From: Octopus vulgaris
Lineage: Eukaryota
Assembly: GCA_951406725.2 (NCBI GenBank)
Contig: OX597817.1
Span: forward strand, 164,548,001 to 164,612,000
DNA: 64,000 nucleotides
Direction: 5' to 3'
In this document: in pieces, positions 14,114 to 49,275 of the stretch
Numbering within the stretch: position 1 is the stretch's first letter
Layout of the letters: every line of letters starts with the position of its first letter
Program-made: the position numbers and the translations under genes
The notes under the pieces: generated by a model
Database searches by the model: none
Told to the model about the DNA's origin: nothing
Seen by the model: only the letters and a program-made list of their open reading frames with translations

Positions 14114-14203
14114 ATGGCAGATGTGGCAGCAGAACAGGCCAGCAGTGGCCACCAGCCAGAGAAAAGGAAGCGTGGACGACCTCGAAAACTTAAGACAGAT
14201 CAG
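14114..14203 (+). CDS. HMGA: HMGA-like AT-hook protein, coding exon 1 (MADVAAEQASSGHQPEKRKRGRPRKLKTDQ; AT-hook 1)
   Basis: ATG at 14114 in gaaATGG context; canonical AT-hook KRKRGRPRK; donor CAG|gtcaga at 14204, phase 0; resembles exon 1 of vertebrate HMGA2 (KRGRGRPRK). Confidence 0.85.
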
Positions 14204-17200
14204 GTCAGACACATTTTAATAGTTTTCATTGCTTTTTACTATAACTTTGTTGTTGAGTGGATTCCCTTTTCTAGTTTTATTATACTGTTGCTTTTACCTA
14301 AGCTCGTTGTGTTTATTTTTCATATGTATTTTAAAAAAAATTCATCTTCGATTCTTTTTCTTTCCATACTCCCGCCAAAATTATCCACAAGTGTGTGTGT
14401 TTGTAACTAATGTGAGTTAGTAAGGGTGTGCATGTTTGTCTATGTGTGATCTACAATAAGTAAACTATTGAAATTTCAAGTCAGCAAACTTATTGTCGAG
14501 TGCCAACTATTTATACCTACTTTATCTGTTCTATATTTTTAATTATTTATTAGCTAAACGTGCCCGTCGTTATAGTCTTTCTTATCTCCATTCCAACCAC
14601 GAGGATATCACAATTTTTAATACGAATAATCTTACTTGAAATAAAAGAAACTTTCCTATGTTACTTAACTACAGCACTTAGCTTTTCTAACATGAGACCC
14701 CAAAAAAAGTAAAGTCCTTTCTCTCACTGTATCTTACCTACTTATTTCATTTTTGTTCTGCCTCTCATTTTCTATTTCTCTATCTTTCTTTTTGTTTCTT
14801 TTATTTCCTTTTATGTATCTTCTTACCTTTACTTTCTCCCTCTCTTTCCTTCTGTTTCTCTCTCCCCCTTTTATTTCGTTTTCTCTCTATATATATCTCC
14901 ACCTCTCTCACTTACCCGTCAATAATATTTACATTTCCTCCTTCCCCTGACACCTCTTTCTCTTACTATTTCGTTTTTTCCACCCTCTCATCTTCAATTA
15001 TTTTATCTTTCCTATCCCGTCTCTCTCTTTTCTCCCCCTCTCTTCCTCACATTCTTTCTCTCTATTATCTTTCTCTATCTTGTTTTTCTTTTTCTTGTCT
15101 CCCTCTCCTCCCTTACAGATTTTCTATTAAGTCTTTCATCTTTCCATTCTCCCATTCATCTCTCAAGTTACGTACATTTTACATCCAATAATGGTCAAGT
15201 TTTCTGTCTAATAAAACTAACCGAGGTCCGACGAAATTAGTGATGGTCAATGTTGGCGAGGACAGTTAATAAAATTCATAAAGATATACGAATTTGGTCT
15301 GTCATGTGGAGAAAAGGGGAATTTTCATGTTAACTTTTACAGGTGAAGTCTAACGTTTAACTTTAATAATTCAATTATACACCACAGCTTATTGACCATA
15401 CACCTGTATTTCAGCCACTGACCGTAATTTTTCAATTAAAGATTCGTTCAGTTTCCTGTCAGTTACAACTCAGAACTTATGAATGAGTAAATGCAACTTA
15501 CATGTTATTTCTCTTGATAATCCTCAGGTTTTATGCAATGCAACATACTATATATATATATATATACACGCGCGCGTGCATGACGTGCGTGCTCAACCTG
15601 CTAGATATAGCAGCCAGATCCCTTTTAAATCACTGCTGTCTTAATAAAAGGACGTTGGATAACGTGATCTTGGGTTCCCTGCATAAGACAAGATGGTCAT
15701 CACTGGAGTGCCTTTCATCAGGTCTGTTCTGTCAGAGTAGATCTGGGATAATAAAAAACAATATATATATGTATATATATATTTATATTACTATAAACAT
15801 CACGTGTTTATAATATACAGCGCACACAATCAGTGTACACTGCGTGTATGATATATACATTAGTTTGTTTTAAATAGCTGCATTGTCTATTAAGTATGGT
15901 GGCATGGTGGAATTGGTTTTTATGTTTGACCAGTGACTATTACAGCCAATTGCCACTGCTTCTGTGCAGCCAGAGCTGCTTGATCAGCGGAGAAATTAGG
16001 GTCTGCCATGCTAGTTGTAGTAATATAGTCTGGCTGACCAGCACGGCTTTGATTGCCTGGAGACTGACTGACCAATATTTATTTCTTCTACTACCATGTT
16101 GTTCTAGCGGAGACTGCCATGCGCTGCTGTTATGGAAACTGACTGACTGACCATCATCTATTGACTGCTTCTTTTGCCATTGGCTGACCATTATTTCTTC
16201 CACTACCATTTTATAATTATAGAGTCTGGCTGACCGGCACAGTGTTCAATATCACGTTCCTTGCTGAAGTAAGAAACTAGCTGACAACCTCATCTTCTCT
16301 ACCCACCCATGCTTACTGCAGGCAATGGTGGTCAGTGAATTGCTTGACCAGCAATAGTGGTTGTTGTACTGGCTACTCCACCTGTCGTTCTCATCAGTTA
16401 AATATGATAAAACTAATGACAGAAATAGCTAAAATCTAATACAAGCTTGAAAATATAAAATTTGTTTTCAAGGTGGAATAGTATTAAATAGTAAAGGAAT
16501 TTCTGATTGTCACAATTCTCTGTAGGAATTCTTCTCATATTTAAAATTCTTGTTCCACATGGAATATATTTAGATTAGCTTACCTATAATGGTAAAAAGC
16601 AACTCAAGCCATATGTATTGAGAAAGTAGGTATTTGGTAACAATTTTATTCAAAGTAGGTTAGTGTAGAATTCAGGTATTGGTGCTGTGTAAGGGTAGAG
16701 TTAATCTTTCTAATAGTGTGTGTGTGTGTAGCTATGAGCATATTTTCTCCTGAGTTGCATACAAGGATCAAATAGCAGCCATTATGTGACTACTAAAATA
16801 TAATTACTGACTTAATAATGAATTTTTGGTGTAAATTAATTAGTATAAGAAATATAATTGTCTTAATGTATAACATATGTGTATCTGAATATATGTATAT
16901 GTCTATAAAAGTATGTATAAATACATTTATATGCATGTGTGTGTGTGTGTAAATATGTATGTATATACACATTTAAATATGTATGTATATACACACATAT
17001 TTAAATATGTATGTAAATATGTGTAAATATGTATGTATATACACACACACCACACATATATATGCATATGTAGCTATATGTTTATAAGTGGATATATTAT
17101 TTTTAAGCTTAATGTTTATTCTGTCAGTCTCTTTTTGCCAAACCTATAAGTTACATGGCTGTAAACAAATCAACATTGTCGAGCAGTGGGAAGGACAAAC

Positions 17201-17235
17201 ACAAAGACACATAAATATATACATATTTATATATC

Positions 17236-17266
<31 letters not shown>

Positions 17267-18380
17267 GACAGGCTTTCAGTTTCCATCAAATAAATCTACT
17301 TACAAGGCCTGAAGTGGGACTGAACCCAAGACTCCATGTTTAGGAAGCAAGTTTCTTATTTCTTTATTGCCCATAAAGGGCTAAACATAGAGGGGACAAA
17401 CAAGGGATTAAGTCGATTACATTGACCCCAGTGAGTAACTAGTACTTAAATTATCGACCCCGAAATGATGTAAAGCAAAATCGACCTCAGCAGAATTTGA
17501 ACTAGGAAGATGAAATACTAGGTAGATGAAATACTGCTAAGCATTTCACCCCGTGTGCTAACATTTCTTACCACACAACCATGCTTGCACCTATCGGAAA
17601 ATAGTGCCACTCTTATGTTGTATATACATCATTTTATGTCCCCTTTGCATGCTTGTCATTGCGTTCGCAAAAGAGTAATGATACTAATGTTTCATGTAGA
17701 GTCATGATGTTGGTGTTTCATGTTGACATTGTCTCTGATTGCTCTGCACTTTCAGAGACCTTGTGAAGGAAACATCCATTACTTAAAAAAACAGTGAAAG
17801 GTAGGGGGCAAGAAGATTACCCAGCCATAAAATCCTACCTCAACTATCTTCCTGTCTAACCCATGCTCACATGGAAAAACAGCCATGAAACAAAAGAACA
17901 GTGTATGTGTGAATATATTTGAATGCATCTATATATGTGTGTTTATGTAATATATATACATATATAGGCGCAGGCATGGCTGTGTGGTAAGAAGTTTGCG
18001 TGCTGGTAGAAACGTTAGCATGCCGGGCGAAATGCTTAGCGGTTCTGAGTTCAAATTCCACTGAGGTTGACTTTGCCTTTCATCCTTTCGGGGGTCGATT
18101 AAATAAGTACCAGTTACACACTGGGGTCGATGTAATTGACTTAATCCGTTTGTCTGTCCTTGTTTGTCCCCTCTGTGTATAGCCCCCTTGTGGGTAGTAA
18201 AGAAATAGGTATTTCATCTGCTGCTACGTTCTGAGTTCAAATTCCACCGAGGTCGACTTTGCCTTTCATCCTTTCGGGGTCGATTAAATAAGTACCAGTT
18301 ACGCACTGGGGTTGATACAATCGACTTAATCCGTTTGTCTGTCCTTCTTTGTTCCCTCTGTGTTCTGTGTTTAGCCCCTT

Positions 18381-20786
18381 CATCATCATCATCATCATTT
18401 AGCGTCCGTTTTCCATGCTAGCATGGGTTGGACGGTTCAACTGTGGTCTGTGAAGCCAGAAGGCTTCATCAGGCCCAGTCAGATCTGGCAGTGTTTCTAC
18501 GGCTGGATGCCCTTCCAAACGCCAACCACTCCGTGAGTGTAGTGGGTGCTTTTTACGTGCCACCCGCACAGGTGCCAGACAGAGCTGGCAAACGGCCACG
18601 AATGGATGGTGCTTTTACGTGCCACCGGCGAAGCTGGCAACGGACACGAACGGATGGTGCTTTTACGTACCACCAGCACGGAGGCCAGGCGAGGCTGGCT
18701 ACGGACACGAGCGGATGGTGCTTTTACGTGCCACTGGCACGAGGGCCAGGCAAGGCTGGCAACTGACACGAACGGATGGTGCTTTTACGTGCCACCGGCA
18801 CGGGGGCCAGGCGTGGCTGGTTACGGACATGAGCGGATGGTGCTTTTGGCAACGGATACGAACGGATGGTGCTTTTACGTGCCACCGGCATGGAGGCCAG
18901 ATGGGGCGGCGCCGGCAATGACTACGATCGGATGGTTCGCTTAACCACAGCTGCAATTTCCACTGATGTTGATCGACCTCAATTTTGGTTCTGCTTTCTG
19001 ATATCTGATTTGATTTTGTTTGATTTTGATTTTGACTGTTCTCACTGGTCTTGCTGGGTCTTCTCACGCACAGCATACTTCCATAGGTCTCGGTCTCTAG
19101 TCATTTCCTTGGTGAGACCTAAAGTTCGAAGGTCGTGCTTCACCACCTCGTCCCAGGTTTTCGTGGGTCTACCTCTTCCACAGGTCCCCTCAACTGCCAG
19201 GGTGTGGCACTTTTTCACACACCTATCTTCATCCATTCTCGCCACATGACCATACCAGCGCAATCGTCTCTCTTGCACACAACAACTGATGCTTCTTAGG
19301 TCCAACTTTTCTCTCAAGGTACTTACACTCTGTTGATTATGAACACTGACATTACGCATCCAACGGAGCATACTAGCTTCATTTCTTGCGAGCTTACGCA
19401 AATCCTCAGCAGTCACAGCCCAAGTTTCACTACCATGTAGCATGGCTGTACGTACACATGCATCATACAGTCTGCCTTTTACTTTGAGCGAGAGGCCTTT
19501 TGTCACCAGCAGGGGTAAGAGCTCTCTAAACTTTGCCCAGGCTATTCTTACTTTAGCAGTTACACTTTTAGCACACCTGCCCTGACTTGGTCACCTAGGT
19601 AGCGGAAGCTATCAACTACTTCTAGTTTTTCTCCCTGGAACGTGGTAGAAGTTGGTCTCTGCATATTTTCCGAGTTTATTGCTCCTGAGCATCTGCCACA
19701 GATAAAAACTATTTTCCTAGTTAGTCTTCCTTTGACATTACTACATCTCTTATGTGTCCATAGCTTACATTTGGTGCATCTTATAGAGTTTCTACCTACG
19801 CCTTTTCTACAGATCGAGCAGGGCCATCTACCTGAAGGCGTTTGTGATTGGTCTACCTTCCTACTTATTAGGACTTTGGTTTTGGCTAGGTTGATTCTAA
19901 GGCCCTTTGATTCTAAACCTTGCTTCCACACCTGAAACTTCTCCTCCAGTTCTGATAGTGACTCAGCAATTAGAGCAAGGTCATCAGCATAGAGGAGCTC
20001 CCTAGGGCATCCAGTCTTGAATTCCTCCGTTATTGCCTGGAGGACTATGATAAATAGGAGGGGACTGAGGACTGAACCTTGGTGGACCCCAACCTCTACC
20101 CTGAATTCTTCACTGAACTCGATGCCAACCTTCACTTTACTAGCAGCGTCTCTGTACATGGCTTGTACAGCTCTCACTAACCATTCATCTATCCCTAGTT
20201 TCCTCATTGACCACCAGATAAGGGATCGGGGGACCCTGTCGAAGGCTTTCTCCATATCAACAAAAGCCAGGTATAGGGGTTTGTCTTTGGCTAGGTATTT
20301 CTCCTGCAGCTGTCTTACCAGGAAAATAGCATCAGTAGTACTTTTCCTTGGCACGAACCCAAACTGCATCTGATCTAATCTAACTCTCTCTCTAATTAGT
20401 TGGGCTATAACCCTCTCCGTAACCTTCATTACCTGATCCAGCACCTTGATACCCCTGTAGTTATTTGTATCTAGGGCGTCACCTTTACCTTTGTAGCAGT
20501 TGACTATTATGCTGCTACACCAGTCATTGGGTATGACTCCTTCGTGTATCACCTGGTTAACTATACGGGTGACTAGGCTATAGCCGACACTACCAGATAT
20601 TTTGAGCATCTCTGCAGTGATTCCTGATGGGCCTGGGGCTTTCCCTGTTTTCATGCTTGTAATTGCCTTAACTACTAAGGAGCTGTCAACTCGGATTGCT
20701 GGTCCCTCTGTTGGGTCAACATTTGGCAGACTCTCTTTATCCCATTCATTTTCCTCATTCAGCAACCTTTCATAGTGGCGTCTCCA
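18381..20786 (-). mobile_element. 5'-truncated RTE-clade LINE: RT domain, PHD-type zinc finger, C-terminus, repeat-containing 3'UTR and (ATG)n tail
   Basis: ORF 19560-20828 has RT motifs (KAPGPSGI, NYRGI, QFGF, FVDMEKAFD, GVHQGSVLSP, YADD, FRYLG). After a frameshift near 19580 it continues into ORF 19042-19506 (RLRWYGHV, GRPTKTW, DRDLWK). Tail is (CAT)n on + at 18381. Confidence 0.95.
18541..18940 (-). repeat. ~61-bp tandem repeat (about 7 units) in the RTE 3'UTR
   Basis: Recurring core cggatggtgcttttacgtgccaccggca at ~18601, 18649, 18710, 18771, 18832 and 18861. Confidence 0.9.
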
Positions 20787-21440
20787 CTTGTGGGCAGTAA
20801 AGAAATAAGAAGCTTGCTTCCCAACCACATGGTTCTGAGTTCAGTCCCACTGTGTAGCACCTTGGGCCAACCAAAGCCTTGTGAGTGGATTTGGTAGACA
20901 GAAAATTAAAAGAAGCCTGTTGTGTATATATGTATATCTGTGTGTGTGCATTTATTTCCTCGTAACTTAGCGGTTCAGCATGGCTGCAGTCAAATGACTG
21001 AAGCAAAAGATTAAGATATATAATCAAAAATAGCACTTAACTCCTGTGATAGGAGTTGTACATATTTAAGAACACTTTGACTCAGCCCTACATTACTCAG
21101 TTTCAGAGGTGGTGATGAGTGACTACGGCATCAGATGTATGGATCAGAGTAAGGTCAATATAAGGGTGGTTTCGAAGTGAGAATATTTGGTAATTTCATT
21201 TATTAGTTCTTACTTAAGCCCTTTGCTCCCTAATCGAACATAATCCATTGACAACTTTTCTCCCTTATTCTTGACTTAGCGGTCTTTTCTGCTTCTCTTA
21301 TGTTGGATCCCTGCTTTTCAGCTCTGCCATGTACGAGAATGATGTATGTTGTTGTTTAACCCAAGGTTAATTTTGATTGATTAGATCTATAATGGAAAGC
21401 ATTCCAGCCAGCCAGCCAGCTAGGACCATTGCATATTTAA

Positions 21441-21659
21441 CCCTCTAGCATTCTGATTAATTTATCAAATGTAATGTTTATGTATCCATATTTTAAAAAA
21501 TTAATCACATATTATCTTTTAGCTTCAAGATTTTGAAGATGTAATCATTTAATTTTAGAATGACATTGTAGGGTAGGTGTGAGAGACTGGATCTGGCCAG
21601 TTTGAACATAAAACAGGTAGACCATTTGGGCCGAATATGGTCGGTAAAATGTTAAAAGG
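21441..21659. mobile_element. piggyBac-type MITE, family P2
   Basis: TTAA|CCCT...AAGG|TTAA ends; homologues at ~23985-24236, ~31035-32142, 52960-53400 and ~53712-54250. Confidence 0.7.
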
Positions 21660-22329
21660 TTAAGGGGTGTCTCAAACTAAATTATCCAATGTCAGGTTTG
21701 ACTTAATGGAGATTGGCTGCTATTTCTACCAGGTATAGTAATCTGGTTAGTTTTGAATTATCATTGATTCTTCTGTAACTTTGCTCTTTTTTCTTCTTAG
21801 TATGGGAAGTAGTCCTTATTAACCTGGTGTCTATCCTTTGACCTGTTCAGAATAGGAGGCCTAACCAGCAGATTGTGCTCTGCTAGCATAGCTCCCAAGG
21901 TTATTGAAGCACACAAGCTATCACACCTCAAGAAGGAGTGGATCATATGGTTGATATGTCCGTTCTGGTCACATACATAGTTTGATAAAAAAAAAGTATA
22001 ACAAATATTTGTATTTATGCTTTCACTTAATAGAGAAGACAGTGGAGTGGTACTAGTCAGTTGGCAGACTAGGATTTGACAACTTAGCAGCATCACCCAG
22101 TGGTGGGTGGAATACAAGTTGGTCCATGTGGCAAGGTAACCGGCCTTTTAGTGTCAGGTTACATACCACATGGTGTGTCATGGATAACTGTGTGTGGTGT
22201 ATTTGTAGCTGGGTACTGGTAGGCCATATTGAGGGTACACAGAAAAGAAATAATTTCACTGAAGGCAAGCAGAGATTGTTTTCCCTGTAACTGTGCATCT
22301 GCCAGCTAGGCTTAAGGTGGTTTTTCAGA

Positions 22330-22840
22330 GGCATCAGTGGCCAATGGTTTGAAATTCATAAATAGGATCTATCTTTGGTGATGGTATTATAATAGATCAG
22401 TTTTCCAATTGATTGATTCTGCTGGTTGTTGCAGTATATGTTGTGAGTAAAGCAAGGTTCTGTCAAGGATGCTGCGTGTGATGTTGGGAAAGACATTTCT
22501 TTGACTCTTGAGTCTCTAGATAAAGTACGAGAGGGAGATGGTGATTTTCTTGTCTTTACACCTGAATGAGTGCATATGTTGTGTAAATCATTCTTTGAAA
22601 TCATTGGTTGTTATGCTTACTCATGTAGTACCTTATGATGCCATCAGATTGCATGAAGGTAGCTCTGTGGACCATAGCCTTTGAGAGGCAAGTACTCCTT
22701 GTGGGCAGTTGCCTTGGCAGTTACAGGCTGGACATTGTGTGGCTGTGTTTCCATTATAGTGTGTAATGTTGGAAGTGATTTTATCTAAGCATGAATAACT
22801 AACCTAAACATTATGGGCATTAAAGAGTTTATGAAAATTG
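22330..22840 (-). pseudogene. Penelope-like element remnant: RT/EN linker and GIY-YIG endonuclease
   Basis: Minus-strand translation NFHKLFNAHNV*VSYSCLDKITSNITHYN...PACNCQGNCP..CLSKAMVHRA...DFKE*FTQHMHSF matches the Penelope pattern HKIFNRNTVKVSYSC...CNC..CP..CL..VVY.A...FK.R..H..SF. Confidence 0.75.
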
Positions 22841-22845
22841 TAATC

Positions 22846-22930
22846 TAAGTAGGGGCTAAACTACAATAACTTATCTGAGTAGGGGCTGAACTACCATAAC
22901 TTATCTAAATAGGGGCTAAACTACCATGAC
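22846..22930. repeat. 30-bp tandem repeat, ~3 copies
   Basis: taagtaggggctaaactacaataacttatc units at 22846, 22876 and 22906, at the 5' break of the Penelope remnant. Confidence 0.85.
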
Positions 22931-23476
22931 ATATTAAGCAACTACCTACCACAAAGAGCTCCTTTACAAAACATTCCCTACATAAAAAAAATAAGATTAC
23001 ATGAACAGGAGAACTACTAAAGAATTTATGGGGACAGTGAAGACTAACAGAGATAACAAAGAAAGAATGAAAATACACTAGATAAACAACAAGCATTCCA
23101 CCTTCAGTTGCCTAAGCAAATATTTTCATGTTTTTTATACCAAATGGTAGCACCATTCTGTCTGACAGTGTCAGCTATGTTCAGATATTATTTTAATACT
23201 GTTTAGGATTACACAAGTATAATTTGTACATGAGACAAAACAAAAATTAAAAACGAAACATAAACACCATACCTGGATGAAAAATGTAGACAGCAGAAAA
23301 AACACTAGGCCCCAGGATGCCATAGTACAAGTGACTTACACAGCAGAAATGGAAGTAATGATAGAGGAGAAAGAGCCAGCCCACAAGTAGAAGGGAGAAC
23401 AGTGGGAGAGAAACAGCACTTGTCTATCAAAGAGAAAGAAGGAAGGAGAATAACTGACAATAACACATCTAATTAA

Positions 23477-23696
23477 CCCATTCATTACTGTATTTATTTT
23501 GAGATGCTCTGTGTTTCTTTCAATTACTTTAAATATAACAAAGAATTTAGTAAAATAACTCAGTTATCATTCAGCTAGTGTTAGGAACATAAATTGTGAC
23601 TAAGGTTTGGTGGAAGATTTTAATTAAAATCTTATGAAAACAAGACATTTATACTCAGAGTCAGAGCCAGTTTCAGCCAGGTTAGTAACGAATGAG
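23477..23696. mobile_element. piggyBac-type MITE, family P1
   Basis: TTAA flanks, CCC-type TIR; homologous to 50769-51354, 59022-59230 and 62090-62332. Confidence 0.8.
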
Positions 23697-24239
23697 TTAA
23701 CGGTGTGTGGGGACTCTTTGTAGCATCCAACAAGCACAAAAGTAAATATAACAATGGTAATTTGTACCAACTTCTCCATGGTGTACCTTAAACTATATTT
23801 AATAATTCTGTAAATTTAAATATACTGTAACTCATTTTGTCTGCATATCTTTTTTATTATATTCCAATTTCATATATTTGTCATTAACCACAAAATTTAA
23901 TTTGCAACTCAGATGCATGCTTGAAATAGCGCCAAATTTCTTCAAAATATCTCTGTGCATACCTGGGTCACAATTGCAGTATTTAATCCTTTAACATTTA
24001 AACCGGCCATATCCAGCCCAAATGATCTACCTGTTTTATGTTCAAACTCTATCAAATGCAATGATCATTTATCTATATTGTTTGGAATTAATCATGCATT
24101 ATCTTGTAGCTTTGAGATTTCAATGAAGTGATTGTTTACTTCTTAGAATGACATTGTAGGGAAGGTGTGAGGGACTGACTGTGAGCAGTTTGAACATAAA
24201 AAGTTTGAATATTTTGGCTGGTTATGGCTAGTTAAAATA

Positions 24240-24805
24240 TTGGGTTGTCCGGAAAGTTCGTGCCAATTTATAGTAGCTTACTTTTCGACGTATTTTAGAA
24301 CATGGTTGAGTCCATAAAATAGGATTTGACTACACCTCCATTTAGAGCACAGTTTAAGCTATATTTTCATGGAAGAAGTTTTATGTTCCTATAACCTGTA
24401 TTAATTCTGTAACCCTTTAAATTGGAAGATAAGAAAGTTCATTTTTGGCACTTGATGCTTTGGGAACCAGACAAAAATTGCTGCAGCTTGGCTGGGATGT
24501 GTTACCCCACCCTCCATATTCACCATATATTGCTCCTTTGGATTTCCACTTATTCAGGTCTCTGCAGAATAGTCTAAATGGTAAAAATTTCATTTCCTTG
24601 GATGACATAAAAAGATATCTTGATGAATTCCTTGCCATGAAACCACCTCAATTCTGGGAAGAGGGTATTTTCAAGTTAAAGGAAAGATAGAAACGCATTG
24701 TGCAACAAAATGGTTCATATTTGGTTGATTAAAAATGTAATGGCCAGTATTTATCGGCCTTTTTCTTTCCTTTAAAAATCGGCACGAACTTTCAGGACAA
24801 CCCAA
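24240..24805 (+). mobile_element. Internally deleted mariner element with transposase C-terminus
   Basis: TIRs ttgggttgtccggaaagttcgtgcc / ggcacgaactttcaggacaacccaa, TA TSD; ORF LGWDVLPHPPYSPYIAPLDFHLFRSLQNSL...FWEEGIFKL (DD34D mariner YSPDLAP motif). Confidence 0.92.
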
Positions 24806-25480
24806 TACAAAAGGATTAAGGCCTTTCCCACTCAGGTTTTGTCGGTTTTGAATTGTCATCGATTTTCTGTAACCTTTCTTTTTTCTAGGTAGATGTGTTG
24901 GCCCTATGTAAAACCAATTTTTACCTCTGGGAAAAGGTGGTCCATATTAGTTTAGCCTTTATCCTTTGACCTGTCCAGCATGGTAGGCCCTACCAGGAGC
25001 TTGTGCTCCACTGGCATGGCTCAGGGTTACTGAAGCACACATGCCACCACGTTGCAAAAAGGACTGGACCTTGTGAAATTTACTACTGTATCTTTGTTTA
25101 ATCATTTGATATATCACATGATACACCTTTTCTATAAGCACATCAAAGTTTTAAGTTATTCTTCTATACATAGATTATCTCTCTGGAAAAAAAATGCTGC
25201 AACTCAATCTATCTAGAATGCAACTAGATGCATAAGGCATTTCTGCTACTTTAAAATCAAAAACATTAATTGTAGTAGAAGTATTAGTTACCATCAAATA
25301 CCCCAACCATAGTTGCTGAACCTAACCTATCATTTTTGTATACGGGCATTATAAGCATTGCTGTGTTAGTTCAGAAGATAGCGGCAAATTCTGAATTAAA
25401 ACCTTCCACCAAACCTTAGTCAAAATTTATGTTCCTAACACTAGCTTAATGATAACTAAGTTATTTTACTAAGTTCTTTG

Positions 25481-26777: not shown

Positions 26778-26789
26778 TCATTCCAAATA

Positions 26790-33462: not shown

Positions 33463-34069
33463 GGTACTGCTTAAATACAGAGGTCCCTTAATGGTACTAC
33501 TTACATACAGAGGTCCCAACTGTGTGGACGTGTAATGACACCTTAAAACTAACTCCCAAAACTAACCCTAACCCTGACTCTAAAACTTAACCCTAAAAAT
33601 TAACACCGTAAACTAACCCTAAAAACTAACCTTAAAAATTAACCCTAAAAACTAACCCTGGAAACTAACCCTAAAACTAACTCCCAAAACTAACCTTAAC
33701 CCTGACCCTAAAACCTAACCCTAAAAATTAACCCTGTAAACTAACCCTAAAAACTAACCCTAAGAACTAATCCTAACCCTGACCCTAAAAACTAACCCTG
33801 AAAACTAACCCTAAAAACTAACCCTAAAACTAACTCCCAAAACTAACCTTAACCCTGACCCTAAAACCTAACCCTAAAAATTAACCCTGTAAACTAACCT
33901 TAAAACTAACCCTAAAAACTAACCCTGACCCTAAGAACTAACCCTGAAAACTAACCCAGAAAACTAACCCTAAAAACTAACCGTAATGAGTGTGCACTGT
34001 AAAAACATCATTACGTAGATGCATCAGGACTTCTGTATTTAAACGGAACCTCTGTATTTAAGTAGTGCC
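33463..34069. mobile_element. Merlin-like MITE (GGYAC ends) carrying a ~440-bp telomere-like repeat array
   Basis: TIRs ggtactgcttaaatacagagg / cctctgtatttaagtagtgcc; perfect 8-bp TSD agtaatag (33455-33462 and 34070-34077). Confidence 0.85.
33541..33985. repeat. Degenerate telomere-like array (CCCTAA / AAAACTAACCCT units) with higher-order repetition
   Basis: Direct reading; block aactcccaaaactaaccttaaccctgaccctaaaacctaacc recurs at ~33551, 33680 and 33832. Confidence 0.92.
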
Positions 34070-37052: not shown

Positions 37053-37101
<49 letters not shown>

Positions 37102-37379: not shown

Positions 37380-37421
<42 letters not shown>

Positions 37422-37529
37422 CTCTCTCCCTTTCTCACTCACTTTTGCATTTCTCTTCCAAACCTATTTTATTAAACCTACACATACACACAAATGCAAA
37501 ATGTCCACACACACACACATGTATATATA

Positions 37530-37565
<36 letters not shown>

Positions 37566-38517: not shown

Positions 38518-39151
38518 GAAATTGAAAGAAGTGCATGTGTGTGTGTTTTTGTGTCTCTGTCTCCCACTATTGTCTGACATCTGGTGTTAGTATGTTTATG
38601 TCCCCATAACTTAGCAGTTCGGCAAAAGAGACTGATAGAATACCAGGCTTAATATATAAAAAATAAGTACTGAGGTTGATTTATTCAACTAAATTTTCTT
38701 CAAGATAGTGTTCCAGCATGGCCACAGTCTAAAGCAGAAACCAGTAAAGGATAAAAGATTTAGATATATTTTACATGATTCAGTTACTGCCTTGACTTTA
38801 TTTTGAGGTATTGGAGTTCTTCAAATGCTGTAGTCCTCGTTGCAACTCTTGTGTGAATCTTGATGTCTAGGCCTCTTTTTTTAATATGGAACTTTATGAC
38901 TAGGTTCTTGTCAAGTTAGTTTTGGAAATCAAATGATATATGATGATGACAACTGCGACAATGATGGATATATATATATATATCATCATCGTTTAACGTC
39001 CGTTTTCCATGCTGGAATGGGTTGGACGGTTTGACTGGGATCTGGGAAGCCAGGATGCTGCACCAAGCTCCAGTCTGATCTGGCAGCTGAATGCCCTTCC
39101 TAACGCCAACCACTCCATGAGTGTAGTGGGTGCTTTTTACATGCCACTGGC

Positions 39152-39182
<31 letters not shown>

Positions 39183-39479
39183 AGGGCATGATGTTAGGAA
39201 GGGCATCCAGCTGTAGAAATTTTGCCAGATCAGATTGAGCCTGGTGCAGCCTTCTGACTCACCAGTCCTCAGTCACATAGTCCAACCCATGCTGGCATGG
39301 GTTGGACGATGTGACTGGAAAGCAGATGTTAAACGATGAAGATAATGATGATGTCTAGAGAATGACTCTGTTTCTTGTTTTAAGATTGAACCAGATCTGA
39401 CTTGTTTCATAAAAATAAAGACTCCCCGACTTTTGTTGACGCTGTATTCTATAACATTGATTCTTTATGATATTTCCAG

Positions 39480-39548
39480 TCTGAAGAACCAAAACCGAAG
39501 AGAGCACGGGGTCGACCGAAAGGAAGTAAAAACAAGAAACCTTCTAAG
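39480..39548 (+). CDS. HMGA: HMGA-like protein, coding exon 2 ([23 protein letters not shown]; AT-hook 2)
   Basis: Not in the ORF track. Acceptor tatttccag| and donor AAG|gttggt; 69 nt, phase 0/0. Peptide closely matches the HMGA2 second hook [20 protein letters not shown] (recalled). Confidence 0.9.
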
Positions 39549-39611
39549 GTTGGTGCAAATTCTTTAAAATGTCGCATGTCACGTCTGAAATGTTGTGTGC
39601 CATACCATATC

Positions 39612-39752
39612 TGAAATTTTGTGTGTCCTATTTGAAATTTTGTGTGTCCTATTTGAAATTTTGTGTGTCCTATTTGACATTTTGTGTGTCCTATTTGAAA
39701 TTTTGTGTGTCCTATTTGACATTCTGTGTGTTCTAATTGAAATTTTGTGTGT
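39612..39752. repeat. 21-bp minisatellite (gaaattttgtgtgtcctattt) x ~6.5
   Basis: Units start at 39613, 39634, 39655 and so on; begins ~65 bp after the exon 2 donor. Confidence 0.92.
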
Positions 39753-40113
39753 TTATCTGCATGATTAATTGGTGTTTGCTTTGTATTTCATAGGATCTCT
39801 TTGAAAAACAAGTTAGTTCCATTGCTTTTGATTTTTGCATATTTGACACCTAATGGAGTCAGATTACACTGCAATGATTATATCCATAATCACATTGATC
39901 ATGTTGCCTATTTTGGTTTCAATCTTATTTATATTTATTTCATTGAATGATGTCACAATGTTTGCAATGTTTGATTTGTGCCTTGTAAATATTGTTGAAG
40001 AAGCCAGCAATAATTTTAAAATAGCTAGAATATCAATGGAAGTTGTTGTTTAAGTCCTGACCAAAGATATTCCAGCCATGACATCTTGTCTTTTGATCAG
40101 ACAGTGAATCTAG

Positions 40114-40940
40114 AACTACATTATATCCAATGAATCCTTCCTTTCCTAAAACAAATGGGGCATTTTTTTAGGGAGATTCAGCTGCTATTTCTAGTCTGTT
40201 GAATGAACACATAGAAGAGGCTCCTTTTTTGTTGATGAAAATGTAATGTAGAGATGGAGATGAGCCAGTATGGATGCTGTTCCTTCTATAAAAGACAATA
40301 AGTATTTGTCTTACTGGGAAACACGGTGTGTTGAGTTACTCCTTACCCTTAAAATTTTAAACTGGTTAATAGTCCTAATTGTGTTTAAAACTACATTATA
40401 TCCAATGAATCCTTCCTTTCCTAAAACAAATGGGGCATTTTTTTAGGGAGATTCAGCTGCTATTTCTAGTCTGTTGAATGAACACATAGAAGAGGCTCCT
40501 TTTTTGTTGATGAAAATGTAATGTAGAGATGGAGATGAGCCAGTATGGATGCTGTTCCTTCTATAAAAGACAATAAGTATTTGTCTTGCTGGGAAACACG
40601 GTGTGTTGAGTTACTCCTTACCCTTAAAATTTTAAACTGGTTAATAGTCCTAATTGTGTTTAAAACTACATTATATCCAATGAATCCTTCCTTTCCTAAA
40701 ACAAATGGGGTATTTTTTTAGGGAGATTCAGCTGCTATTTCTAGTCTGTTGAATGAACACATAGAAGAGGCTCCTTTTTTGTTGATGAAAATGTAATGTA
40801 GAGATGGAGATGAGCCAGTATGGATGCTGTTCCTTCTATAAAAGACAATAAGTATTTGTCTTACTGGGAAACACGGTGTGTTGAGTTACTCCTTACCCTT
40901 AAAATTTTAAACTGGTTAATAGTCCTAATTGTGTTTAAAA
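40114..40940. repeat. 275-bp tandem triplication
   Basis: aactacattatatccaatg at 40114, 40389 and 40664; copies differ by about 1-2 substitutions. Confidence 0.95.
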
Positions 40941-42312
40941 AGTGTTTGTGTGTTTGATGTATGTGTTTGACAGTCTTCTGTTAAAGGTTGGTGTTCATTA
41001 TGTATTTGATTAAAGCTGTACCTGATGAAATGTTTGACTGAAGTTGTGTTGAAAGATGTGTTTGATTATGATGGTGGTAGTGGTGGTGCTGTTCGTAGAA
41101 TCATTTAAGGGACTGAAATCATCATCATCATCGTTTAACGTCCGTTTTCCATGCTAGCATGGGTTGGATGGTTTGACTGGGGTTTGGGAAACCAGGAGGC
41201 TGCACCAGGCTCCAGTCTGATCTGGCAGAGTTTCTACAGCTGGATGCCCTTCCTAACGCCAACCACTCCGTGAGTGTAGTGGGTGCTTTTTACGTTCCAC
41301 CGGCATGGGCCAAAGGAGGCTGGCAAACAGCCACGATCGGTTGGTGTTTTTACGTGTCACCGACACGGATGCCAGTCAGGCGGCGCTGGTATCTGCCATG
41401 TTCGGACGGTGCTTTTTATGTGTCACCGCGACGGGTATCTTAACTACAATTTCCATTTGATTTTTATTTTGATGTTGGTGCTGACATACTTGACTCAATA
41501 GGTCTCCTCAAGAACAGCGGGTCACTCTACGATCCAAGGTTAGCACAGCAGGCCATCCTGCAAGCCATGAACTCACTTCATTTGTGAGGTCTGAAATATA
41601 TATAGTTATTGACTAAGGGTAAAATATTAAATACAAGTTATGTGTTCAATATATATTATGATTACTAATCATCATCATTATCATCAACAAGTAAGAAAAA
41701 ATATCATCATTATGTTATGATCATTGTCAATCTCATTCTATTCTACATTTGGGTACTTTTATCTATATATTTAGCTTGCTTGCCAATCATGTGGTTTTGG
41801 GTTCAGTCCCACTGCATACACCTTGGGCAATTGCCTTCTAAAGCCTTGGATCAACCAAAGCATCGTGAGTGAATGAGGTTGAGGGAAACTGAAAGAAGCC
41901 CACCATGTGTGTGTGTATGTATCCTTTCTAGTTATCGTGATGGTTGTAAATGAGCATCATTGTTATATAAGTGAGGTTATTTGTTTCCAGTCTTCTATGA
42001 AATGTGTAGCTATGAGAAAATATTAGCCTTGCTTGGAAACAGGCTCTATAGTTGGCACTTGGAAGGGGATCTGGCCATAGAAAAATCTGCTTCAACAAAT
42101 TCCATCTCATTCATACAAGCATAGAAAAGTGAGGCATTAATTGATGATGATGATGGTGATGATGATGATGATGATGATGGACTGCATCTATCACAAAGGC
42201 AACACTATGAAAGTGTGATAACTAAGATGAAGGCCTTGCAGTTTGATACCTATGCTAATGAATAATGCATACTGGGTAAATAATTATTGAAAGATGGTGC
42301 AAATGGTTAGAG

Positions 42313-42513
42313 CAGTGGTTTTCAACCAGGGTTCCGCGAATACAGTCCAAGGGTTCCGCAAGAAGTTACAAAACTGCTAAAATCGGCAGTAATTTTTAAT
42401 TCTCCTGTGCAGATATGTGTGCATAAGACTATTAAATTATTGCACAGGGGTTCCTCGAGCCAGTGGAATGTTTCCTTGGGGTTCCGCTCCAGCCAAAAGT
42501 TTGAAAAGCACTG
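42313..42513. mobile_element. hAT-type MITE
   Basis: TIRs cagtggttttcaa / ttgaaaagcactg; perfect 8-bp TSD ggttagag; internal gggttcc repeats. Confidence 0.9.
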
Positions 42514-43238
42514 GGTTAGAGTACAACAAGAACAGCTTGAGTAAAAGAGAACGTAGATCTGATAAGATGGGGCTTCACATATGAAAAATATATTGAAGAC
42601 TCATTCAGCACACACCATCATGGGAACATAGAGATGGTGTTGGTGGTGGTGGTGGTGGTGGTGGTGGTAGTGGATATAGTGATCAAGCGAGGCTGTGGAT
42701 GTGGGTATATTCTTTGTGTTGCATTTGATGTGTATGAAATGCGTTTCTGGTGTGTTACTTTTATCTGTCTTTTACAATTAATAGCAGGCAAGGCTTTTGT
42801 AGTTCAGCTCGCTTTGAACCTGGAACCATATGGTTCCAGGTTTGATACCATTGCACAGAAAATTGCAAAGTGTCTTCTGTTATAGATTGCCTGAGGTTGG
42901 CCAATGTTCTATGAATAAAATTTTTTATGTGTGTGTGTATCAGTATGAAGTGAATTAAAAATAATGTATCAAATACAAACACCTTGTAGGAGCCATACCT
43001 ACCTGAGTTATTTATCTTTCTTCATACCAAAAAAGACAAACAAAAACAAAACAATGAGTTACCTTTTATTTAAAGGAAATAATGAAGAAAATAAACACTC
43101 TTGAAAGTGATGCTCCAAGAGGGCTGTAGTATCTATGGCTGATACCAGTAAAAAAAATATAAGAAAATTTGGTGTATGGATGTTTGGGTGGAAACTGTCC
43201 TTGTCTGTTAACATGACAGTGGTACTGACATGCATACG

Positions 43239-43279
<41 letters not shown>

Positions 43280-43967
43280 CTGGAGACAAATCATGTACAT
43301 ATGACAAATATGCTAGTCATAAGATATAAATTAGTTTACATATTTAAAAAATTTAATCACTGAAGTTAATTAGTCAGGGTATTGATTATGTATAATAAAA
43401 TTTTCAATAGAAGAAAAAAATTGATTATCTATAAACTTTTTAATGAAATACTATAAATTCTGACTTGAAACAGCTTAACTAGCAACACATACTGATTCTT
43501 TTCTAAATTGTTATCAACTTTTGAAATACAGGTCTCAAGTCTTGGCACAAGGCCAGCAGTTTTGGGGTGGGGATAAGTTGATTACATCAACCCTGGTACT
43601 CAACTGGTACTTATTTTATCAACCCCTGATACGTCGAAAGGCGAAGTTGACCTTAGCAGCATTTGAACTCAGAGCGTAACAATGAACAAGCATTTTGCTT
43701 GGCTTGCTAACAATTCTGCAAGTTTGCCACCTTCAAATTTTGAAATATTTACTCTTTTACTTGCTTCAGTCATTTGACTGTGGCCATGCTGCAGCACCGC
43801 CTTTAGTTGAGCAAATCGATCTAGGACTTATTCTTTGTAAGCCTAGTACTTATTCTATCAGTCTCTTTTGCTGAACTGCTAAGTTACAGTGATGTAAACA
43901 CACCAGCATCGGTTGTCAAGCGATGTTAGGGGGACAAACATATACACACACACATACGCATACATAC

Positions 43968-44018
<51 letters not shown>

Positions 44019-45597
44019 TACAACGGGCTTCTTTCAGTTTCTGTCTACCAAATCCACTCACAAGGCTTTGGTCGGCCCGAGGCTATAGTAGAAGACACTT
44101 GCCCTAGGTGCCATGCAGTGGGACTGAACCCGGAATCATATGGTTGGCAAACAAGTTACTTACCACATACCCACTCCTATGCCTATGTTATTGTTAGCAA
44201 ATACTTTATAAATTGTTAGATAATGGATACAGACTTTAAAGTGGCTATTGTGAGTTAACCACTACAGATTTTGAAATGGCTATTATTAACTAGTCATTAC
44301 AGATCTTAAAGTAGTCCAGGGTCTATACTGAAATATATTTGACTCCTGTGAAAGACATTATCTACTTGTGTTGTAAATGGTAGCTACACAGTTGATTTGA
44401 TCTATATATTTAACCCTTTCGTTACCTTTTTCTCATGCCTTATTTTCAATGAATTTTGAAAATAACGAATTATTTAGAAAAATAACTGTCTTATTTAAGC
44501 TGGTGTTAGGCAGTGAATTGGCAGAATTGTTGGCATGCCAGGCAAAATTTTTATTGGCATTTTGTCTGTCTTTGTGTTCTGAGTTCATATTGTGCTAGGG
44601 TTGACTTTACATTTGACCTTTCGATAAAATGAGTACCAATTTATCACTGGGGCCTTTGTAACTCACTTATCCCCTCACCTGAAATTACTAGCCATGTGCT
44701 TAAATTTGAAACCATTATTAAGATGGTGTGAAGGTGGAAAGCTGACAGAATCTTAGTACATCAGGCAAAATGCTTTGCAATATTTTTTCTGGTTTTACAT
44801 TTTGGGTTTAAATTCTACCAAAGTTGATTCTGCTTTTTATCCTTCCAGAGTCAATAAGATAGGTACCAGTTGAGCTGAGTGGTGGATATAATCAACTAGC
44901 TTTTCCCCCTAAAATTTCAGACCTTGTGCCTACAGTAGAAAAAATTATTAAGCTAGTGTTTAGAACATTGGTATTAGGAAGAGCATCCAGCTGTAGAAAC
45001 TCTACCAGATCAAGATTGGAGCCTGGTGCAGCCATCTGGTTCGCTAGCCCTCAGTCAAAATCGTCCAACTCATGCTAGCATGGAAAGCGGACCTTAAACG
45101 ATGATGATGAATGTTTAGAACATAATTTAATGTGAACTTTTGATGGAAGGCTTTGATTTAGATCATTTTTAAACAAGAGGTTATTGTAGAACTAGGAGCA
45201 GTCATGGGTGGGTTGGTATCAGAAGAATTAATAAAACATCAGTACAACTATTAATAGTTATCGCCAAGCTAATATGGCAGTCCATGAATATAGGATGAAA
45301 GCTGCCGTTGATTAGCTCCAAGAGGCCATCGCCTCTAGCTAGCTATGTGACACACAAACCTGTGTCCATGGACTGCCATATTAGCTTGGCAATAACTATT
45401 AATGTCCAGTACTGCTGCCGTAGTCTCCTTTAGAGAGACTTAGAAATAGTAATATTTCTATCAGTACAACTATGATTACTGATAGATCCATTAATACTGA
45501 TATCAGTTACTGGAATTTATTTATTAACTGTTGATAACTAGATCATTATTTGTCATGGACCTACTATTGTCTTCTTCTCACCACATAATATATTCAA

Positions 45598-45996
45598 CTA
45601 GCAGTATCGCCCGGCGTTGCTCGGGTTTGTAAGGGAAATAACTATATAAGCATTTTTAGAGAGTTATAGCCAAAAAATAGCAAAAAAAATGCATTAAAAA
45701 TGGGGAAAAAATGATGGTAAATTTTTTTTAAAATCGTCGACTCATCGTAGACATTTTTAGAGAGTTACTTCCCTTATATAATAGCGAAAAAATGCGTTAA
45801 AATGGGAAAAAAATGATGGTAAATTTTTTTTAAATCGTAGACTCATCGTAGACGTGCGCTAATACCCAGAAGGGCTCGATATGAATCACGACTATAAGAT
45901 ACCCGGTTTTGGTTAAACTGCACCGCAAAATGTGGGAGTAGTTAGGAATCTAAATCGTAGGAGACAGACACACAACTTCTCTTTTATATATAAAGA
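45598..45996 (-). mobile_element. Non-autonomous Helitron
   Basis: Minus strand A|TCTTTATATATAAAAG ... hairpin cccgagcaacgccggg ... CTAG|T; no TSD. Confidence 0.88.
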
Positions 45997-46030
45997 TTAC
46001 CCTTTTGATGCTCTCTGCATTAAATATGTT

Positions 46031-46791
46031 GGATCTTTTCCTTTTGAACGGCACTTTTCAACACAATTTCTAGTTTACTAAACACTTGTAAACTTCGTAT
46101 ACTGGTAGAATGTGTTTATAAAACATCATTTTTTCTTGGCTTTATTGAGAAAATTCTATATGTTGTAACATATTTCGTCTTTAATTTCGAGCATTTCGGT
46201 AATTTTAACCAATCGCTGGAGTCCATTTAGGTAAATAATATTCTGTGCATAATGAATATGTCCCTCCTTTAAGAAACAGATTGGGTTTATTTACATTTGT
46301 GAAGAAAAAAAGATACCCTTCCCCCACCCCTAACCCTAACTCTCACCCTAAATCTAAAATAGATTGAAATGCAATAGATCGATACTAAGGTTATAATTAT
46401 GGGTGAAAATTTCATACGACACCGCTACGGAAAATGGGATTTTTTTCTAGCGGTGTCAAATGAAAATGTCACCCATAATTATGGCCCTAGTATCGATCTA
46501 TTGCATTTCAATCTATTTTAGATTTAGGGTTAGGGGTTGGAAGGGTATCTTTTTTCTTCACAAATGTAAATAAACCCAATCTGTTTCTTAAAGGAGGGAC
46601 ATATTCATTATGCACTGAAATTACCGAAATGCTCGAAATTAAAGACAAAATATCTTACAACCTATAGAATTTTCTCAATAAAGCCAAGAAAAATGATGTT
46701 TTATAAACACATTCTACCAGTATACGAAGTTTAAAACTTTTTAGTTGCCTAGAAATTATGTTACAAAGTGCCGTTCAAAAGGAAAAGATCT
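46031..46791. mobile_element. Palindromic (head-to-head) dimer of the GGATC Merlin-like MITE
   Basis: Two inverted near-complete units meeting at ~46435; a single 8-bp TSD aatatgtt flanks the whole structure. Confidence 0.88.
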
Positions 46792-47231
46792 AATATGTTA
46801 ATACTAACTCAACTACTGTAAATACACCACTCTGAGATCTATATAATGATTACAGTACACACACTCACACACATACATGCAGGGTGACCAAAAATTTGCT
46901 CAACCATTTAATACATACAAATATATTAAATGGTAGCTTCAGTTTTGGGCCACCTGTGTGTATGTGTATGTTTGTACACATATACATATATATATATATA
47001 CATACATAAATTTATATATATATATATATATATGCAGATGCCTGACCAGCAAGGGGAAGCGGCTGACCTCCCTTGTTCGAAGGTTATAATGGACACAGGC
47101 TCGTGTGTCACATAGCTAGCTAGAGGCGATGGCCTCTTGGAGCTAATCAATGGCAGCATTCGTCCTATATTTCTGGACTGCCATATTAGCTTGGCGATAA
47201 CTGTTGATATATATATATATATACACATACA

Positions 47232-47449
47232 CGAAGGGCTGCTGAAAAGTTCCTGGCTTTGGGTAAAAGAAAATAAATGAGGATCAGTTACTTATGATTT
47301 TATTCAACAAATCCCCCTCTCAGATACACACACATATTGCAATGGTCCTTCAGTTTTTCTAAGCCCTGTAAAAGAACACAGAAGATTGGGCCTCCAACCA
47401 GACCTTTCATAATACCCTTAAAGCCAGGAACTTTTCAGCTCCTTCTCCT
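47232..47449. mobile_element. mariner-derived MITE
   Basis: TIRs gctgaaaagttcctggcttt / aaagccaggaacttttcagc. Confidence 0.75.
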
Positions 47450-47456
47450 GTGCATG

Positions 47457-47488
<32 letters not shown>

Positions 47489-47691
47489 TGTATGTATGTA
47501 TGTATGTATGTATGTATGTATGTATGTATGTATGTATAATACACACACATACACATACACATACACACACACATATTCCTATAAATCTAATTCATTGACA
47601 GCCTTGTTTAATTTGTTCTCCAAAAGCTACACTTATTTTTCCATTTGTGGTAAATCTGTTTTTTCTCTTTTTTGTCTTCGTTTCTCTTCAG

Positions 47692-49275
47692 TTTCAGGAA
47701 ATTTTGAGGCCTGTAAAGTACAAGGCATTGCTTAAGGTTCAGAAAAACAAAACTGTTTCTAAGAAGTCTCTACATAAATGGTCAAAAAGAATGATTCATG
47801 ATCTTCAGGCAAATCCTACCCAACTCCAAAACGTTCAAACTGATAGTTCAAATAACCCTAATAGAGTAAATAATAAATTTGCCAATTCAAAAAACAACGG
47901 TTTGAAGAAAATGAAGAATTCTGTGATGCCTCAAAATTCGTCTAAATGTAAGACCAATCAAGGTTCGGTTATTTCTAATCACAGTAAGAAAAGACCTGAA
48001 GTCACTGTCCCAAGAAAAATTAAAACATCAATGAACAGCAAATGTCAAGTAGATAAGAAACGTGACCCGACAAAAATGAATTCTAAATCTATACATTTTC
48101 CAAACAACAATCAGGGTCAGAGAATCCTATCCAGTCCTAAGAACTCTGCCATAACGAAGCAGCTTCAAACTCCTGTTAATTACAGAAGGAAAAGTTGTGG
48201 GTTATGTGATCAATCATCAGTTCGTAGACATAAAGCTACATCCAAACGCTTTTGCAGTGACCCATCGTCATACAAATGCAGCCGGTCGTTACCAACTCTG
48301 AGGAGATCTCAACGGATAAGAACTATTTGTGATAAATTTTCAAATTCAACCATCAGTAGTGAAAACTCGCCACCATCTTCTGCAGTTTATTATTCTTCGC
48401 CTGGATTTTTAGTGCCATTACGAAGGCGCCGGTCTTCTAAAACTGCTCATTCCACTCAGACACAGCTTCGGAATGTTTCTCAACCCTGTTCTTCACATCA
48501 TTCCCCTGCTGCTGTTAATAGCACTACTAGTCTTTCCTCTCATACCACTGGTACTACTACCACTACTATTACTACTACTACTACTACCACAGGTCTTTCT
48601 TCTCCTGCCGCTGCACCTCCTTCTTCTACTGCTTCTTCCCCTCCATCTTCTGTATTGTCTGCTTCTACTAACAATTTGCATCACCTCTCTTCTTTACCAC
48701 AATCTATACCCAAGGATTTTCCATTTGAGTGCCAAGCTGGTGGTTTCACACCAGCTAATCAGTCTAAAGACATGACAGATGCTGTGCACATAGTTAGACC
48801 TTGCGGTCAACTTTCTCCTAACAACTGTTCAATGAAAATGTTGAAGTGTCACCGGTTGCGCCACATGGCACCAGGATCAGGAGATGTGGCAGCAACTAGC
48901 GTAGTTTGCAGACACCACTGTTCTGCTGCAAGACACTTGGACAACAAATGTCATAACATGCATATGAATACACAACCATGCCTTCCAAACATCAGATCAG
49001 CTGTTCAAGTGGCTGCTTCTATGATTTCGTCAAGAATTACCGACAAGAGCGTCAGCATCTATAACCATTCTTTAGGAAAACAATCTGGAAGTGTGTGCCA
49101 ATCTTACGAACAACTCAATATTGTACTGAGTCCATTTGAAAAACAGATTTTCGAACTGCACCGACAAGAACATGAACAAAGAATGGCAATGGAAGAAGAG
49201 CGGCATCAAATGAAAATGGATCTCATGCGATTGAAGAAAAAGGCTTTAGAGAGTAAACTAAAACTAAAGAATTAA
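47692..49275 (+). CDS. Large terminal coding exon (~527 aa): Lys/Asn/Ser-rich basic region, Ser/Thr low-complexity tract, Cys/His-rich segment, C-terminal coiled coil; probably spliced to the AT-hook exons
   Basis: Uninterrupted 1.6-kb ORF in AT-rich DNA; long polypyrimidine tract ending ttcag|tttcag| (two phase-0 acceptors, 47692 and 47698); stop TAA at 49273-49275. Linkage to exon 2 is inferred from phase and strand. Confidence 0.75.
   Translation, partial: FQEILRPVKYKALLKVQKNKTVSKKSLHKWSKRMIHDLQANPTQLQNVQTDSSNNPNRVNNKFANSKNNGLKKMKNSVMPQNSSKCKTNQGSVISNHSKKRPEVTVPRKIKTSMNSKCQVDKKRDPTKMNSKSIHFPNNNQGQRILSSPKNSAITKQLQTPVNYRRKSCGLCDQSSVRRHKATSKRFCSDPSSYKCSRSLPTLRRSQRIRTICDKFSNSTISSENSPPSSAVYYSSPGFLVPLRRRRSSKTAHSTQTQLRNVSQPCSSHHSPAAVNSTTSLSSHTTGTTTTTITTTTTTTGLSSPAAAPPSSTASSPPSSVLSASTNNLHHLSSLPQSIPKDFPFECQAGGFTPANQSKDMTDAVHIVRPCGQLSPNNCSMKMLKCHRLRHMAPGSGDVAATSVVCRHHCSAARHLDNKCHNMHMNTQPCLPNIRSAVQVAASMISSRITDKSVSIYNHSLGKQSGSVCQSYEQLNIVLSPFEKQIFELHRQEHEQRMAMEEERHQMKMDLMRLKKKALESKLKLKN

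Follow-up and report, generated by a model that had tools for sequence, protein, structure and literature searches.

An octopus HMGA gene in which two AT-hook exons are spliced either to an acidic-tail exon or to a 527-codon alternative last exon

Introduction

HMGA proteins are known as small, acidic-tailed proteins, and forms in which the AT-hooks carry a foreign tail come mainly from tumours or are short, unconserved variants. A stretch of 64,000 nucleotides (nt) of the Octopus vulgaris genome (assembly GCA_951406725.2, contig OX597817.1, positions 164,548,001 to 164,612,000, forward strand; the window below, part of contig C4) raises the question of whether a natural form of this kind exists. 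A preliminary description, made from the letters alone, had placed two HMGA-like exons there, followed by a long open reading frame, and had wavered between a lineage-specific natural hook fusion and an alternative-last-exon isoform of an HMGA gene with canonical exons beyond 64 kb. We find that both are true together: the HMGA gene uses the 527-codon exon as an alternative last exon, its short-form exons lie downstream of the window, and the long form is conserved, with a gene model in Argonauta. The reading that we favour, and that we consider rather probable as a whole, is that the two hook exons are spliced either to the acidic exon, giving proteins of 85 or 96 amino acids (aa), or to the 527-codon exon, giving a protein of 580 aa that is likely a chromatin scaffold.

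Gene architecture and splice joins

The exons are listed below in window numbering, which is carried past 64000 for the extended coordinates; the genome searched comprises 2.8 Gb.

14114..14203, + strand: exon 1, coding part; 30 codons, one RGRP AT-hook (hook 1), GT donor, phase 0
39480..39548, + strand: exon 2; 23 codons, one RGRP AT-hook (hook 2), AG/GT boundaries, phase 0
47692..49275, + strand: alternative last exon; 527 codons and a stop, phase 0; basic first half, S/T/P-rich middle, helical end
53976..54169, + strand: repeat-derived cryptic exon, its end inferred from the extent of its contig; partner of exon 2 in X1 only
39549..64000, + strand: the short form's long intron, as far as it lies in the window; it extends past the window to the next two exons
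G000:C4:164620887-164620919 (extended 72887-72919), + strand: 33-nt in-frame exon, 11 aa; from a two-contig mixed consensus of X3
G000:C4:164632531-164632629 (extended 84531-84629), + strand: acidic-tail last exon, 32 codons and a stop; contigs of X1 and X15, protein search E 3e-11

Twenty-four public runs were listed, 20 of which hold the long exon; none is recorded as RNA, and the five that we compared were all compared as contigs. Contigs at the long exon came from X1, X3, X7 and X15, and the comparison at exon 2 took in X1, X3, X15 and X22, with nothing on exon 2 in X22. Intron stretches showed no cover, and neither this nor the blank in X22 was counted as evidence. A join was counted as bridged when it had 31 letters on both sides, and 19 loose-end rows exist beyond those listed. 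The join of exon 1 to exon 2 was present in three of four runs (X1, X3 and X15) and, among the rows listed, that of exon 2 to 47692 in all four runs holding the long exon (X1, X3, X7 and X15), so that both predicted junctions, 14203>39480 and 39548>47692, are seen in public contigs. An acceptor at 47698, offered earlier as a second possibility, has no exon 2 join among those listed; the contigs use 47692. The contigs of these four runs begin to fit at 47690, that is, with the two letters that the acceptor shares with the end of exon 2, and the loose letters given for the X7 and X15 contigs are the end of exon 2. The X7 contig (2046 nt) carries 386 letters upstream of the 47692 join and extends to 49347; its upstream part would fit exons 1 and 2 plus a leader of about 230 nt. 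In X1, X3 and X15 the overlap at this join is 30 letters and misses the bridging rule by one, since the contigs of these runs stop where exon 2 ends, at a branch. No intron-less copy of the HMGA gene was found in the genome searches, and the joins, which lie at GT-AG boundaries, are therefore best read as spliced RNA.

The exon 2 donor is the branch point for all isoforms and has four partners (47692, 53976, 72887 and 84531). A direct join to the acidic exon was present in X1 and X15. The 33-nt exon (X3) and the 53976 exon (X1) were decoded from consensus lines in which two contigs are mixed, and the predicted mixtures reproduce 30 of 30 letters together with the agreement values (0.63 and 0.58, respectively). 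The depth of the branch contigs was higher for the long than for the acidic exon in X15 (151.5 versus 6.7) and lower in X1 (10.4 versus 46.7), which is only a hint of tissue switching, as the runs were chosen for holding the long exon and contig depth is a poor measure. We regard the exon structure and the joins as close to certain, and the exons, the frame to 49275, the single hook in each short exon, the phase and the length of about 580 aa all stand as first placed.

It is hardly credible that the long exon forms a nested gene of its own, with a separate start, and is joined to the hooks incidentally. Some database entries, namely P0001 (508 aa) and a 147-aa UniRef entry from O. bimaculoides (P0005), do start inside the exon, but in four of four runs the contig reaches the exon from exon 2, and fused models exist in two species. 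The contigs of three runs are moreover cut 30 letters into exon 2, and a gene caller given such a contig would begin the protein at an internal Met, which is how P0001 starts.

Short and long isoforms

Exons 1 and 2 each encode one AT-hook with an RGRP core and together share 59% identity over 49 aa with hooks 1 and 2 of a vertebrate HMGA2-type protein; against the Pfam AT_hook profile the exon 1 hook gave an E value of 0.0057 and 16.8 bits, slightly below the cut-off of 17.4. Joined to the acidic exon they encode 85 aa, and 96 aa when the 33-nt exon is included. Both forms are small proteins with an acidic tail from the last exon, as expected of HMGA, and the 96-aa join is identical at 93 of 96 positions to the O. 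bimaculoides RefSeq model XP_014783342.1 (P0006), named HMGI-C isoform X2. When the genome was searched with the short-form protein, three exon matches fell in this locus and one weak match elsewhere, and among the best candidates, which alone were scored, this is probably the sole HMGA gene.

The usual three AT-hooks were not found, the acidic exon being joined directly to exon 2. The window holds neither a third RGRP exon nor an acidic exon, as had been noted before, and the search downstream that had been suggested was half successful: the E/D-rich exon lies 20.5 kb beyond the window end, and no third hook exon was found in the window plus 200 kb (264 kb), where the remaining RGRP matches are retrotransposon frames or antisense reads. 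A relative in the gastropod Babylonia has the same plan with two hooks. Since both the short form and this relative have two hooks, the long-form fusion did not entail losing hook 3. The long exon was first described as standing in for hook 3 plus the acidic tail, and this holds for the acidic tail (and the 33-nt exon), while the short form too yielded no hook 3. In intron 1 (window 19042-20840, - strand) there are reverse-transcriptase-like retrotransposon frames whose family, assigned by eye, carries an RGRP string mimicking an AT-hook in motif scans.

The join of exons 1 and 2 to the 47692 exon encodes 580 aa, about six times the length of the short form. With an isoelectric point (pI) of 10.4 and without an acidic tail, this protein does not resemble a canonical HMGA protein of about 100 aa. 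It is identical at 575 of 580 positions to the O. sinensis RefSeq model XP_029635809.1, named probable serine/threonine-protein kinase dyrk2, and the Argonauta hians model GAB1598210.1 (P0002; 566 aa) has the same two hooks at its N-terminus. The sequence of the long form is thus already in databases under a wrong name, and its being an HMGA isoform appears to be undescribed. We found no relevant literature on HMGA or AT-hook proteins of octopus or cephalopods in a search of titles and abstracts that mostly excluded subscription journals, and the evolution section of an HMGA review does not include molluscs (PMC7013770).

The kinase name was examined separately. Neither P0021 nor P0002 gave a Pfam kinase match at E values up to 1, and there was no kinase among the three PDB sequences matched at E values up to 1. 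One RefSeq and one GenBank model that call the long form a DYRK2 kinase are therefore misleading and are corrected here.

Conservation of the long exon

The long exon is kept as an open frame in related octopods, with 72% identity to P0001 and 43% to Argonauta P0002 over 96-98% of its length; the frame has thus remained open for more than 500 codons at 43% identity. Conservation is uneven, with 36 of 120 residues identical to Argonauta in aa 81-200 and 46 of 60 in aa 521-580. Differences between the contigs and the window, compared outside a repeat at 48546-48595, also point to constraint on the protein: of the 17 coding differences listed, 10 are silent and 7 replacing, compared with 5.3 silent sites expected when transition bias is included (P 0.017; pN/pS 0.32). 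The A>G differences at 48706 (Ile to Val) and 48216 occur in X1 only and could be an allele or RNA editing.

No homologue of the long exon outside octopods was found among 7992, 22 and 13 scored candidates in word-limited, single-sequence searches. A phmmer search of 1.84 billion representatives gave 17 matches including the query; three were octopod models that cover the exon or else the short form, and all others matched the hooks. In the ESM Atlas the whole long form had no usable match and the tail only leads below 0.9. The sensitivity of these searches is limited, and they do not imply absence from squid and cuttlefish. Within the genome the long exon has a single full copy. On contig C16 (locus L002:1236-1934) lies a 699-bp copy of window 48842-49540, covering the end of the long exon and the start of its untranslated region (UTR); it is 98.3% identical with 12 differences, 3 of them replacing, and sits between an AT microsatellite and a repeat.

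This conservation also bears on the possibility that the exon is mainly a splicing or poly(A) sink, lowering the amount of short HMGA or swapping its 3' UTR, with the added protein of minor importance. The 3' end of the long form is as follows.

49276..50200, + strand: 3' UTR of the long form, at least to 50200; contigs of X3, X7 and X15 reach this position, the end of the compared stretch

The first polyadenylation signals after the long exon are an ATTAAA at 50841 and an AATAAA at 51333. In human HMGA2, six variants have different 3' ends and one of them escapes microRNA (miRNA) control (PMC7038092), and the four partners of the exon 2 donor would suit such a sink. A sink would, however, not need a frame of 500 codons kept to Argonauta or a tail with 46 of 60 residues identical, and a let-7 seed was not found in 49276-54000 or in the 9.7 kb 3' of the acidic exon, which leaves the let-7 control known from human HMGA2 without support here. 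We consider the sink reading very unlikely.

Anatomy of the 580-residue form

The long form has 99 K+R and 33 D+E residues, compared with 22 and 18 in the 85-aa form, and its charge is held at a steady +8 to +9 per 50 aa from residue 54 to 303. AlphaFold2, run on a five-row alignment, gave a mean pLDDT of 37, with a single confident helix at residues 534-579 inside a block (residues 531-580) of pLDDT 80-97. The long form is predicted to be largely disordered and basic, and the C-terminal helix is likely a coiled coil. A search of PDB sequences had the HMG-I hook peptide as its best match (E 0.07). Three conserved elements stand out.

48181..48213, + strand: conserved 11-residue block with CxxC, aa 217-227; identical in the window, P0021, P0001 and P0002
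48301..48315, + strand: RRSxR motif, aa 257-261, candidate anchor to the nucleosome acidic patch; in three of three full-length orthologues
49093..49272, + strand: conserved C-terminal 60 aa with helix 534-579; 58 of 60 identical to P0001 and 46 of 60 to Argonauta

The CxxC block had no other genome match better than E 3.5, and an RRSxR motif arises in 1.3-1.8% of 20,000 shuffles of each full-length orthologue.

Origin of the long exon

Besides the partial duplicate on C16, the tail has only one other match in the genome, in a gene on contig C30 whose last exon closes with it. The two share 44% identity over 48 aa (E 0.0013 and 0.0027 in the two search directions), and the score was reached by none of 3000 shuffles that keep the heptads, with either the Octopus or the Argonauta tail. 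It is likely that the HMGA gene gained its long tail by capturing the last exon of a nuclear-factor gene related to this one. The C30 gene (G000:C30:5514123-5520232, - strand; loci L031 and L043) consists of several exons, with a Cys/His-rich region spread over two of them and the tail-like exon last; it has no significant Pfam match, and a single-sequence model of one of its exons was of low confidence (pLDDT 36). On the opposite strand, 14 kb away, lies an open frame of 316 codons that encodes two AT-hooks and an acidic stretch (G000:C30:5499695-5500642, + strand; L035), and the fact that relatives of hook and tail are neighbours on C30 may be chance.

A C-terminal helix is also a feature of Myb/SANT (MSANTD) genes. 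The exon could be what is left of a Harbinger-type Myb/SANT transposon gene that was caught in intron 2, like PGBD3 in CSB, an alternative that concerns the origin only. We compared the tail with 30 kb beside each of the six PF13873 loci in the genome and found sub-threshold sense-strand matches at two of the six. The two best of the 2210 frames in these surroundings are sense-strand helices of similar pattern, and their scores were reached by 15 and 151 of 3000 heptad shuffles. However, neither match reaches the threshold (E 0.12-0.43), and both weaken when the Argonauta tail is used (395 and 337 of 3000 shuffles). Harbinger-derived MSANTD genes are defined by their Myb-like domain (PMC9392472), and no Myb/SANT trihelix domain was matched in the exon or the joined protein, although the family is present six times elsewhere in the genome. 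Nor does the exon have a transposase domain, no inverted repeat pair flanks it in 44000-54000, and the genome has a single full copy of it. On balance, a Harbinger origin is doubtful, and capture from a relative of the C30 gene remains the preferred explanation. Each of the six Myb_DNA-bind_5 genes (L056-L061) has a long low-complexity linker after the domain.

Possible function of the long form

From what is known of HMGA biology, the hooks of the long form would bind AT-rich minor grooves and hook 2 would provide nuclear import, as hook 2 of HMGA2 is a nuclear signal (PMC1874589). The HMGA acidic tail is believed to adjust how the protein binds DNA (PMC11291832), and its replacement by a long basic one would therefore strengthen and spread the contact with chromatin: exchanging it for some 250 strongly basic residues would give higher DNA affinity and wider contact. 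The RRSxR motif is predicted to dock on the H2A-H2B acidic patch, adding a nucleosome contact, and the terminal helix to pair with itself or with a partner bearing the same kind of helix, forming a bridge. The long form would then be a basic multivalent scaffold that holds AT-rich chromatin together rather than loosening it. The choice of last exon and poly(A) site would be the switch, and the ratio of the forms may vary by tissue or species. We put this scaffold mechanism forward tentatively, with less confidence than the gene structure and the favoured reading as a whole. More speculative is the proposal that octopod HMGA is a two-state switch made by a captured exon, which turns a 9-kDa protein into a 64-kDa polymer-forming bridge with hooks, an HMGN-type anchor and a coiled coil; in this complete form we consider it rather unlikely.

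Several observations weigh against the favoured reading. Only X7 has 31 letters on both sides of the exon 2-47692 join, and the runs are all labelled as RNA by guess ("RNA?") or carry no label. The exon 2 donor is promiscuous and also takes up a repeat-derived exon, and six vertebrate two-hook HMGA models were returned with short unrelated tails of 37-68 aa after hook 2, compared with 529 and 515 residues in two octopods. The excess of silent sites falls to P 0.068 without four A>G sites that are possibly RNA editing. The AlphaFold alignment is only five sequences deep, the RRSxR and CxxC elements were chosen after looking (RRSxR being only five residues), hydrophobic residues fill only 50% of the a/d heptad positions in the helix, and no Pfam family passes in the long exon. 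The evidence for the long form is at the level of contigs and gene models.

An unlikely alternative is that the long form is real and selected but recruits a single partner while tethered to DNA: the hooks would carry the terminal helix to AT-rich sites, the helix would bind a transcription factor or co-regulator there, and the middle would serve only as a spacer. Conservation is indeed focused on the last 60 aa, the sole part predicted to fold, the nearest tail in the genome closes a multi-exon gene with a Cys/His-rich region, and tumour HMGA2 fusions attach foreign C-termini to the hooks (PMC11291832). A mere spacer would, however, hardly be expected to conserve the CxxC block and RRSxR in the middle or to hold its charge over the first 250 residues of the exon. 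If the captured-exon switch is true, the gene would be a domesticated, conserved version of the HMGA2 tumour fusion. A hook-plus-foreign-tail form that Octopus and Argonauta both retain alongside the normal protein offers a natural way to see how a foreign tail alters AT-hook function. It is also a candidate for a chromatin factor specific to its lineage, in animals whose genomes are large and rich in repeats.

Comparison with known systems

HMGA2 alternative last exons, the tail-less HMGA1c, tumour fusions and the CSB-PGBD3 exon trap are known already. Vertebrate HMGA2, like the octopus gene, has one hook per exon and an 11-aa exon before the last acidic exon, and human HMGA2 variants likewise use alternative last exons from the long intron after the hooks (PMC11291832, PMC7038092). 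The octopus gene differs in having two hooks instead of three, with the alternative exon following hook 2, and in that this exon adds 527 aa conserved between genera and comes with no let-7 seed in the stretches searched. The HMGA2 fusions of benign tumours also combine N-terminal hooks with a foreign C-terminus and lose the acidic tail and the usual 3' UTR (PMC11291832). In contrast to these, the octopus form arises by regular splicing from an intact gene, without rearrangement, is conserved and leaves the short form in place.

HMGA1c and zebrafish Hmga1b resemble the long form in having two conserved hooks and no acidic tail, and HMGA1c also arises by alternative splicing (10.1101/241927); the parts of that source cited here describe no long conserved added exon for either. 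In CSB-PGBD3 a large intronic sequence likewise serves as an alternative 3' terminal exon, giving a conserved fusion beside the normal protein (PMC2268245), but the exon there is a recognisable transposase, whereas no transposon domain or end was found in the octopus exon. The RRSQR and RRSLR motifs of octopods are similar to the acidic-patch anchors of HMGN (RRSAR) and tardigrade Dsup (RRSSR), all within disordered basic proteins (PMC12487698), although the likeness is limited to five residues and binding by the octopod proteins is a prediction. AlphaFold 3 is reported to fail on the HMGN2-nucleosome complex (PMC12487698).

Other features of the locus

The repeat-derived exon at 53976..54169 has 11 further similar stretches in the 264 kb. 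Long self-complementary elements at window 46023-46800 and 52972-53403 are 80% and 76% palindromic and probably MITE-like (miniature inverted-repeat transposable elements). A degenerate 13-bp array like telomeric repeats lies at 33541-33986, and at 40114-40940 a 275-bp unit is present in three copies that are 99% identical.

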